This document shows positions 23,042 to 24,651 of a stretch of DNA of 64,000 nt, in pieces. The stretch is from positions 5,647 to 69,646 of the forward strand of contig JAESQQ010000719.1 of assembly GCA_016765095.1 (NCBI GenBank). Direction: 5' to 3'. Below the pieces are notes generated by a model. It did no database searches and was not told the DNA's origin. It saw only the letters and a program-made list of their open reading frames with translations. The position numbers were made by a program, and so were the translations under genes. Position 1 is the stretch's first letter. Each line of letters opens with the position of its first letter. This DNA comes from Planctomycetota bacterium (lineage in GTDB: Bacteria; Planctomycetota; J058).

Positions 23042-23075
23042 GCTCGTCTCACTTCCGCGCTGAGACGAACGGGAA
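23042..23075. repeat. Hairpin CCGCTCGTCTCA-N9-TGAGACGAACGG (12-bp stem, one mismatch) between the hydrolase gene and the transposase gene
   Basis: Seen directly in the sequence. It could be a terminator or a subterminal hairpin of an IS200/IS605-type element. Confidence 0.3.
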
Positions 23076-23182
23076 AATCTTGCTCGCCGACTTCTCTGGC
23101 GAGACGATCACCGCCACCTCCCCCCCACGGTCTCAAGACTTAGCGCCCCTCTCTCTGGTCTCCCGTTCGCGCTCTCCGTGGC

Positions 23183-24130
23183 GTGACCCGTGCCCGTCCC
23201 GTGTTCCGAGAGTCGATCACCTTCTTGACTCGCCGAGTCGTGGGGCAGCAGTTCCTCCTTCGCCCCGACCCTTCCTCTGTGAATGCCTATCGCTATGTCC
23301 TAGGTCTCAGCACCCAGAAGCTCGACGAGCGGGTTCGCTACCTTGCCGGAATGCAGATGAGCAATCACCAGCACCTCGTCTCCTACGACCAGGCTGCTGA
23401 GCGCTCCCGATTTCTCTCCTACCAAAACGGTCTCCTCGCGCGTTCCATGAACACTCTCCGCGGCCGCAAGGGGTCCTTCTGGGACGCTCCGACCCGGAAG
23501 GACAAGGAGCGCCTCTTGAGTGCCGAGGCTGTCCTGCGGGCGATCGTCTACACCCTCTGCAACCCGGTTGCTGCGGGCCTCGTCGACTACCCCCACGAGT
23601 GGCCGGGCACGGTGGGTGACTGGCGCCAGATCCTGACCGTCCCAATCACGGCGAGTCGGCCGCTCCACTTCCACGATCAGGCTGATCCTGAGCAGGGCGG
23701 CTCTCCGCTGCGAGTGAGTTTCCACCTACACAAGCCCGACTGCTTCGACTTCCTCCAGCCGCGCGAGTATGAGGCCCTTATTCGCACGGCTGTCCAGGAG
23801 CGTTGCGACCAGCTCCACGCGGCGCGAGGGCGTCGTATGCCCATGGGGGTCGCGGCTGCGCTAGCCCTACCTCCGACCACCGTTCCCCGTCAGCGAGACA
23901 CTCGACTCGACCGGGACCCTTACCGCTTCATGGGCGACCCCAAGCTGGTCGCCGAGTTGACCGCAGCCTGGATCGCTTGGACCGCTGCTTACCTAGCGGC
24001 TCGCCGGCGTTGGCTTCGCGGCGAGCGCGAAGGCGTCGAGTTCCCGCCCGGGACCGACGCCTACCACCACCTCGAGAACGCCCCCGTAGCGGCGCTCAGC
24101 ACCCACTCCCCCTTCGTTTTCCACACCTAG
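23183..24130 (+). mobile_element. IS200/IS605-like Y1 (HUH) transposase, REP-associated tyrosine transposase (RAYT)-like
   Basis: HxH-type motif SNHQHLVSYD. C-terminal GSFWDAPTR...AIVYTLCNPVAAGLVDYPHEWPGT matches the Y1_Tnp catalytic Tyr region. At 315 aa it is longer than classical TnpA. Confidence 0.55.
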
Positions 24131-24282
24131 ACCCTTCCGCGGCCCGCACTCCGTCCCAACCGGCTCCCCACGGGTGGCCTGGGCGCCTTCGTGCCCGGAG
24201 CGCCCGCGCGAGCGAGTTTGGGGTCCCTCCGGCCGCAAAGAAAGCCGGGAGCGGAACCAGCCGGGCTCGCTCGGCGGCCCAG

Positions 24283-24556
24283 ATCCAGCCCCAGGGTTCG
24301 CTCAAGGATCCGGACCCAGCAAGGATCCGGACCCAGGGTTCGCTCAAGCAAGGATCCGGACCCACCAGGGTTCGCTCAAGGATCCGGACCCAGGGTTCGC
24401 TCAAGCAAGGATCCGGACCCACTGGCTCAAGGATCCGGACCCAGGGTTCGCTGGAGAAGGATCCGGCCCCACCAGGGTTCGCTCAAGGATCCGGACCCAG
24501 GGTTCGCTGGGTTCGCTGAAGAAGGATCCGGACCCAGGGTTCGCTCAGGGTTCCAG
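24283..24556. repeat. REP-like tandem array: about 9 copies of a 25-30 bp unit (C)AAGGATCCGGACCCAGGGTTCGCT(C)
   Basis: GGATCCGG(A/C)CCC recurs at roughly 24306, 24323, 24351, 24380, 24410, 24432, 24459, 24487 and 24525. Each unit can fold as GGACCC-A-GGGTTC (6-bp stem with one G-U pair). It sits immediately downstream of the RAYT-like gene. Confidence 0.6.
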
Positions 24557-24584
24557 AGACGGACGACGCCTACGCACGCAAACC

Positions 24585-24651
24585 CCGAGCGTCCCTCCAT
24601 GACGCGCCGCCGCCATTTCTACGCCCAGGCCGAGCGTCCCTCCATGACGCG
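24585..24651. repeat. Two exact 22-bp direct repeats CCGAGCGTCCCTCCATGACGCG (24585-24606 and 24630-24651) upstream of the response-regulator gene
   Basis: Seen directly in the sequence. Function unknown: regulator binding site or part of the REP cluster. Confidence 0.3.

Follow-up and report, generated by a model that had tools for sequence, protein, structure and literature searches.

What kind of genetic unit is a gene for a Y1 HUH nuclease that lies between an upstream hairpin and a downstream array of short tandem repeats? The question is raised by a locus at positions 23040-24557 of a 64-kb stretch of contig JAESQQ010000719.1, from a genome labelled as Planctomycetes; this whole stretch is called the window below. 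An earlier note on the same DNA had offered two answers, a module of the type formed by repetitive extragenic palindromes (REP) and their associated tyrosine transposase (RAYT), or a degenerate insertion sequence (IS) of the IS200/IS605 type. With moderate confidence, we regard the locus as an IS200-like module from an undescribed group with long, class-2-like TnpA proteins, in which the terminal right-end hairpin has been tandemly amplified. As judged by sequence comparison, it holds one copy of a probably mobile DNA element of ~1.4 kb with a single gene.

A divergent Y1 protein with two domains

The gene occupies 23183-24130 on the plus strand and starts with GTG, a start codon that is backed by homologs beginning MT-x-P. 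Its product of 315 amino acids (aa) comprises an N-terminal Y1 core of ~145 aa and a conserved C-terminal domain of ~170 aa with no known fold. The HUH (HQH) and tyrosine motifs that the earlier note had read in this open reading frame (ORF) are present as H62-Q-H64 and Y123-TLC-N127-P128. Residues H62, H64, Y123, N127 and P128, all in the core, are invariant in 19 homologs, as are W140-P141-G142, and the C-terminal domain carries an invariant F287-P288-x-G290. Quentin et al. (2018, PMC6006769), in their classification, give N-H-x-H together with Y-x3-N-P as the signature of class 2, the TnpA-REP-like class.

Curated models do not recover this protein. Pfam, including Y1_Tnp (PF01797), gave no match at E <= 10, NCBIfam REP_Tyr_transpos (NF047646) stayed below threshold (21.4 bits against a cutoff of 80), PHROGs and PADLOC gave no matches, and a search of the PDB with the single sequence returned nothing. 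For the C-terminal ~170 aa there was no match in the PDB and none to a helix-turn-helix (HTH) or Bac_DnaA_C model of Pfam. A profile of the family matched E. coli TnpA-REP (4er8) with E = 1.5e-4 over the HUH-to-Tyr region, with the HUH motifs aligned. Moreover, the AlphaFold (AF2) model of the protein, with a pLDDT of 87.5, places Y123, N127 and P128 on a helix of residues 114-130, and its top 29 Foldseek matches in the PDB are all Y1 transposases (4er8, ISDra2, IS608, IS200), the best being 4er8_A (E = 1.3e-4; TM-score 0.62, normalised to target). Two full-length relatives exceed the PF01797 cutoff of 23 (P0035, 28 bits; P0060, 25.9 bits). Since curated models miss the protein while its relatives pass PF01797, membership in Y1 rests on transitive and structural evidence. 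By sequence comparison and structural modelling, the protein is a divergent Y1 HUH enzyme of the IS200/RAYT superfamily, as the earlier note had proposed. That note had also named an outcome that would speak against it, namely a repeat unit occurring only here together with failure of Y1_Tnp matching. Literally, both were found; the assignment of the protein was rescued by the deeper tests.

An exhaustive profile search at E <= 1e-30 recovered 1,513 representatives of clusters at 50% identity, nearly all of ~300 aa and aligned end to end, and this number is a lower bound for the full-length architecture. Thus, the two-domain architecture defines a large and under-annotated family. Because Pfam misses this family of at least 1,500 clusters, its genes are usually annotated as hypothetical. 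In a scan of species-representative genomes, only distant Y1 relatives appeared (<=43% identity), mostly in Myxococcota.

Conserved ends and the tandem array

The flanks of the gene were compared among loci of relatives at 45-70% protein identity, in which both flanks carry conserved non-coding blocks and the tandem array is absent. The left-end block, a 5' non-coding block delimited by alignment of homologous loci, spans 23045-23182 on the plus strand. In homologs it consists of one to three CGTCTCA(C) motifs, followed by a 19-bp palindrome and then by GA(A/G)ACGA. The corresponding elements of the window are CGTCTCAC (23045-23052), which is found at the same position in 8 related loci, GAGACGAA (23063-23070), a degenerate form of the family palindrome, GGGAAAATCTTGCTC (23071-23085; consensus ATGGGCAA-N3-TTGCCCAT), and a second GAGACGA (23101-23107). 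An nhmmer profile made from homologs only, with the window left out, matches 23047-23182 with E = 9.3e-6. Folding of the palindrome gives -8.5 kcal/mol (z = -5.7) in the homologous locus L036 and only -2.0 kcal/mol (z = +0.6) in the window.

The hairpin with a 12-bp stem that had been noticed upstream of the gene was confirmed. CCGCTCGTCTCA and TGAGACGAACGG, at 23040-23072 on the plus strand, are complementary at 11 of 12 positions around a 9-nt loop and fold at -10.2 kcal/mol (z = -2.5). The hairpin begins 1 nt past the stop codon of a beta-lactamase-like gene and consists of CGTCTCA(C) and GAGACGA, two conserved motifs of the left end that are inverted relative to each other. The closest relative, L060, keeps it with a T.G wobble (TTCGTTTC...GAGACGAA).

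In homologs, the right end is formed by three small hairpins, DH1 to DH3, over ~220 nt. DH1 (24158-24193, plus strand) holds the hairpin GGCTCCC-CACG-GGGTGGCC at 24162-24179 and then the invariant GGTGGCCTGGG at 24173-24183; in homologs it reads GGGCACC..GGTGCCC, followed by an invariant CCTGGG and usually by TGTAC. In the alignment, 85.7% of DH1 cells are paired, and in slid controls at most 63.5%; one column is compensatory (CG in four, GC in two and GU in two), and a homolog-only nhmmer profile recovers DH1 of the window with E = 4.6e-5. The middle arm of DH1 can instead pair with the following GGGCGCC. This alternative is paired equally often but shows no compensatory changes; DH1 might conceivably act as a switch. 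Roughly at the position of DH2 in homologs, where GTCCC/GGGAC, GTCGC/GCGAC and GTCCT/AGGAC covary by eye, individual folding of the window gives a hairpin of its own, CTCCGGC...GCCGGGAG (24227-24251, plus strand). DH3 lies ~190-230 nt past the stop codon in homologs and has a conserved apex, ACC-GAG-GGT. Of its cells, 68.6% are paired, compared with at most 50.7% in slid alignments; both partners have changed in 11 pairs, a number that 1 of 500 shuffles reached. The end hairpins of homologs fold strongly, whereas the left palindrome and DH3 of the window fold at chance. Both the G.T wobbles and the fold energies of the right-end hairpins point to the sense (plus) strand of the gene. Across 326 kb of sequence from the compared loci, the end motifs are found essentially only beside genes of the close subfamily.

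Conserved hairpins on both sides of a gene could also be regulatory. In that case, the Y1 gene would be domesticated and stationary, like the REP-less subclasses 2.1 and 2.3, the flanks would serve as an operator palindrome or insulating terminator on the left and as terminators of the 3' untranslated region on the right, and the array would be a neutral minisatellite seeded on the last terminator hairpin. The preference for the sense strand suits RNA structure, with its G.U pairs, equally well as top-strand DNA, and the upstream hairpin, placed right past the preceding stop codon, resembles a terminator. However, a scan for sigma-70 promoters and intrinsic terminators gave nothing meaningful; no promoter consensus and no hairpin with a T-run after it were found. 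An Rfam scan of 22800-24900 at E <= 1 returned nothing. We consider this alternative, the main one, possible but rather doubtful, and the evidence from insertion sites that bears on it is given below.

The array lies at 24282-24557 on the plus strand and contains ~9-10 units of 17-37 nt, a full unit being made of a linker (AAGGATC) and a weak hairpin, CGGACC-CAG-GGTTCG. Its periods by TRF (Tandem Repeats Finder) are 28 nt and, as a higher-order structure, 57 nt. With <=1 mismatch allowed, GGATCCGGACCC is found 9 times; CAGGGTTCGCT has 8 exact copies and one variant. Of the full 22-mer there are 5 exact copies and a degenerate one against 0.01 expected, and 0 of 100 shuffles reached 6. The roughly nine tandem copies described in the earlier note are therefore real, whereas their placement immediately downstream of the gene is not, as the array begins ~150 nt past the Y1 stop codon. 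Successive units are spaced by 17, 29, 28, 29, 22, 28, 28 and 37 nt. These spacings are not multiples of 3, so that a coding array was rejected and the repeats are taken as non-coding.

The hairpin potential that the earlier note had ascribed to the units is not above chance in the window. The possible stem, CGGACC/GGTTCG, has 6 bp, one of them a G.T, and closes a CAG loop. The whole array folds no better than shuffled sequence (z = -0.18), and a single unit folded as DNA gives -2.2 kcal/mol (z = +0.09) or, in a variant with a long loop, -5.0 kcal/mol (z = -1.2). The plus strand of the array folds better than the minus strand.

The unit corresponds to the DH3 hairpin plus a linker of ~10-14 nt, with a stem identical to that of L039 and a change of G to C in the loop. 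When the 64 kb were searched with a DH3 profile made from homologs only, the top 5 matches all fell inside the array. DH3 is single in most homologous loci and tandemly doubled in L037 (38-nt unit), and L032 has a DH3 copy in inverted orientation upstream of the gene. Since the unit matches a motif that is single in most homologs, the array can be understood as a local amplification of the right-end terminal motif. On these matches, it is DH3 multiplied tandemly in place and, within the 64 kb covered, not a member of a dispersed REP family. Tandem duplications of end motifs also arose independently in L037 (2 copies) and, for the left-end motif, in L018 (4 copies). L018 belongs to a distant member of the family in the Sandaracinaceae metagenome-assembled genome (MAG) JBFWYI01. 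At its positions 2659-2951, a left end of ~118 nt is tandemly duplicated and a ~30-nt motif, GATC(A/C)GACCGTGGTTG(A/C)CGAGATAG, is present in four copies; the sister locus L019 (93%) has one full copy.

Could the array be an artefact of assembly, with repeats collapsed or expanded when the metagenome was scaffolded? A Logan assembly made independently from the same sample lineage (L059) does stop at 24349, inside the array, which leaves the exact copy number uncertain, and the array interrupts short-read assemblies. However, over the first ~2.5 units L059 does not differ from the window, so that the array itself is real, and its degenerate and variant units and 57-nt higher-order structure are untypical of assembler stutter. 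An artefact is hardly credible.

The REP-like label given in the earlier note finds no support. It would describe a true REPtron, in which the gene is a RAYT and the array a cluster of cognate REPs resembling a bacterial interspersed mosaic element (BIME), with hundreds of further REPs dispersed elsewhere in the genome. Likeness to REPtrons (E. coli 4er8; subclasses 2.2, 2.4, 2.5, 2.7 and 2.8, PMC6006769) is found in several features. TnpA-REP is the closest relative with a solved structure, the Y-x3-NP signature is that of class 2 (PMC6006769), and gene copy number is low. The tandem hairpin units beside the gene look superficially like a BIME, end motifs were multiplied tandemly and independently in three loci, and L032 has the inverted upstream DH3 copy. 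In addition, JGI names relatives 'REP element-mobilizing transposase RayT'. However, the array unit occurs nowhere outside 24282-24557 in the 64 kb, solo ends are also absent from the window, and neither unit nor end motif recurs in ~45 kb of flanks of related loci. The units lack the GT[AG]G foot of REPs. Hairpins with this foot within 1 kb on either side of the gene numbered 6, against 3.0 +/- 1.7 in shuffles, and these were unrelated and formed no repeated family. All units are direct, on the plus strand and downstream only, without inverted pairs (REPINs), and their hairpin stability is at chance. Concomitantly, the gene with its flanks behaves as an insertion-polymorphic unit, unlike REPtrons. 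We thus consider a REPtron improbable here.

The position of the array raises one further alternative, that the units are cis-regulatory sites, such as enhancers or upstream activating sequences, for the downstream operon of a response regulator and a sigma-54 activator and are unrelated to the Y1 gene. The response-regulator gene (24729) follows the array at a distance of ~170 nt and overlaps the activator gene (25097), and every unit contains a GGATCC palindrome. However, the DH3 core also lies downstream of Y1 genes that have no such operon nearby (L001, L035, L036, L037, L039), and L002 has a single DH3, with the Y1 gene and the gene for the orthologous activator in convergent orientation. 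In addition, no sigma-54 promoter consensus was found upstream of the operon. Such a function is very improbable.

Between the array and the response-regulator gene, a 37-nt unit with CCGAGCGTCCCTCCATGACGCG is present in 2 direct copies, 45 nt apart (24576-24657, plus strand); it may or may not belong to the element. A hairpin GCGTC-CCTCCAT-GACGC is possible in each copy and is loosely like DH2 of homologs (CGTCCC...GGGACG). No copy of this repeat was seen in the other loci examined, and no sigma-54 consensus or shared motif was found nearby.

Probable mobility and genomic surroundings

Evidence for mobility comes from a site that is empty in the window and occupied in a related genome. In the window, a gene for SMC (1069-4833, minus strand) is directly followed by a gene for a trypsin-like protease (5091-7370, plus strand). 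In the related genome L001, a Y1 module sits between the orthologous SMC (86% identical) and protease (48%, full length) genes, and the gap between them is 1,487 nt instead of 121 nt. The intergenic DNA is 83% identical up to position 4969 of the window (4778 of L001) and unrelated beyond, which puts the empty site at 4969-4970. At 4985-5000, this site holds a small palindrome, CCTCGCGAGG within GCCTCGCGAGGGCTG, that is loosely like the DH3 apex (CCGAGGG) and may be either chance or a footprint. Moreover, L042 and L047 are 95% identical inward from the CGTCTCAC motif, their upstream flanks are unrelated, and both contigs break inside the gene. Pairs of copies within the same MAG are 93% (L018/L019) and 97% (L014/L025) identical, a Myxococcota MAG discussed below has multiple paralogs, and the Y1 gene is interrupted by assembly breaks in several MAGs. 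Together, the pair of occupied and empty sites and the near-identical copies in unrelated flanks favour mobility.

These data weigh directly on the stationary, domesticated gene introduced above. A sharp junction next to SMC genes that are 86% identical between genomes, copies that are 95% identical and start exactly at the conserved left motif in unrelated flanks, and assemblies that break within the gene in several MAGs all speak against it. They also bear on the second answer of the earlier note. An IS200/IS605-like element is better supported by the conserved ends, the occupied and empty sites and the derivation of the array from the right-end hairpin, and it need not be a degenerate one.

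A number of observations weigh against a mobile element, and several of them would suit domestication well. The window contains a single copy of the module, and base composition at the locus (GC content included) is native. The sigma-54 activator beside the gene is probably an ortholog (43%, full length) of the neighbour in L002, which hints at some vertical stability. The Myxococcota MAG DAIQNR01 carries the long Y1 gene as at least 9 paralogs (L004-L015, L021) that are 67-84% identical in DNA, a pattern not typical of fresh IS copies. For the insert in L001, the right junction could not be aligned significantly (score 7 against -10.7 +/- 8.2). In contrast to IS608, the hairpins of the two ends are not alike in sequence. 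The left palindrome and DH3 of the window have chance stability. In addition, the long class-2 subclasses 2.1 and 2.3 have been reported without IS or REP features (PMC6006769). An empty site for the window's own insertion was sought through orthologs of the beta-lactamase-like gene, and the 2 usable contigs (L061, L063) were not syntenic.

Compared with IS200/IS605 elements (IS608, ISDra2 and IS200; subclass 1.1), the preferred IS200-like reading finds agreement in the Y1 fold with an HUH motif and a single catalytic tyrosine, in the single-gene organisation without terminal inverted repeats and, with the reservations just given, in small strand-biased hairpins near both ends (in homologs) and in presence or absence at a conserved site with multi-copy relatives whose contigs break. 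The differences are also considerable. The protein has 315 aa instead of ~150 aa, with a large extra C-terminal domain, its tyrosine motif is Y-x3-N-P (class 2) and not Y-x3-Q by the criteria of PMC6006769, and it has no Pfam Y1_Tnp match. Furthermore, the hairpins of the two ends differ, the right end has three of them over ~220 nt, tnpB is absent, and copies within one MAG are often diverged.

The genes for the response regulator and the sigma-54 activator that follow the module span 24729-26728; in L002, the activator gene (6187-7800) is oriented the other way. A sigma-54 activator is encoded beside the Y1 copy of L032 as well, and only the AAA+ core is common to them. Farther downstream, at 26953, the window differs by a 1-nt indel from a public ENA scaffold of the same locus (L058), which reads CGCCACCAGCGCC where the window reads CGCCACAGCGCC; the indel splits an ORF of at least 289 aa in the scaffold into two, at 26798-27028 and 26875-27666. 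A perfect tandem repeat of two copies of a 22-nt unit, AATCATCCGGACGGATGAGTGA, with the inverted repeat CATCCG/CGGATG inside, lies at 39678-39721, just upstream of a gene for a hybrid histidine kinase of 1,433 aa (39770-44071). Hybrid histidine kinases, fusions of Ser/Thr kinases with receiver domains and sigma-54 activators are unusually abundant in the window. The Planctomycetes label of the host genome may deserve checking.

Proposed mechanism and place among Y1 families

Long C-terminal domains and a lack of REPs also characterise subclasses 2.1 (TIRYT) and 2.3 of Quentin et al. (2018, PMC6006769). They share N-H-x-H, Y-x-x-[LC]-N-P, a large C-terminal extension and the lack of canonical REPs with the family described here. 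Proteins of subclass 2.3 measure 325 aa in the median, and a genome carries several of them in diverged form (74.8% identity) (PMC6006769); by these summary features the subclass is similar in length and in its diverged copies, as seen with the at least 9 paralogs in the Myxococcota MAG. The paralog pattern of DAIQNR01 is closer to this multi-copy, diverged subclass than to a typical IS. However, subclass 2.3 was found in Chromatiales and Alteromonadales, whereas our MAGs are labelled Planctomycetes and Myxococcota. Unlike subclass 2.1, the C-terminal domain here matches neither Bac_DnaA_C nor HTH models of Pfam, and terminal inverted repeats, including the TIRYT type GGGG[AT][CG]A[CG], were found neither in the module of the window nor in the L001 insert. 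Conserved hairpin-bearing ends, present here, are reported as absent from both subclasses, a comparison made by description only.

Another relevant group is class 3 of TnpA-Y1 from Planctomycetes and Acidobacteria, with atypical weak flanking structures, which was described as an intermediate between IS and REPtron (Quentin et al. 2018, PMC6006769). Its members have Y-x4-Q, ~178 aa, a CnGA foot and up to ~600 copies per genome (PMC6006769). The phyla are similar and the gene is flanked by weak structures in both cases, whereas Y-x3-NP, 315 aa and the lack of visible dispersal set the present family apart.

If the IS200-like reading is correct, the enzyme would recognise the end hairpins on one DNA strand, by analogy with IS200/IS605. 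It would cut beside them through a covalent Tyr-DNA intermediate; the metal would be bound by N127 and the histidines of the HUH motif. The segment of the element would then move as single-stranded DNA. Two origins may be considered for the array. The terminal hairpin may have been multiplied by replication slippage or unequal exchange, or the enzyme itself may have done so through aberrant cleavage and rejoining at the right end, analogous to the supposed growth of REP clusters. Weakening has affected the left palindrome, the TGTAC motif and the stems of DH3, so that this copy may no longer be able to move.

In its strongest form, the proposal would be that these genes constitute an uncharacterised group of active IS200-like elements with a long two-domain class-2 Y1 transposase, in which the enzyme itself multiplies the right-end hairpin, so that the group would be a living intermediate between IS and REPtron. 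We regard this form as unlikely. Y1 HUH enzymes drive both IS200/IS605 elements and the proliferation of REPs, and the origin of domesticated RAYT and REP systems from IS is still open. The family described here joins a RAYT-type core and an unknown C-terminal domain with element-like ends, insertion polymorphism and repeated duplication of end motifs (~10 copies here, 2 in L037 and 4 in L018). Such an intermediate, if true, would show REP/BIME clusters being born from the end of an IS. Moreover, if the enzyme causes the duplications, the family would offer a testable model of how REP/BIME genesis begins.

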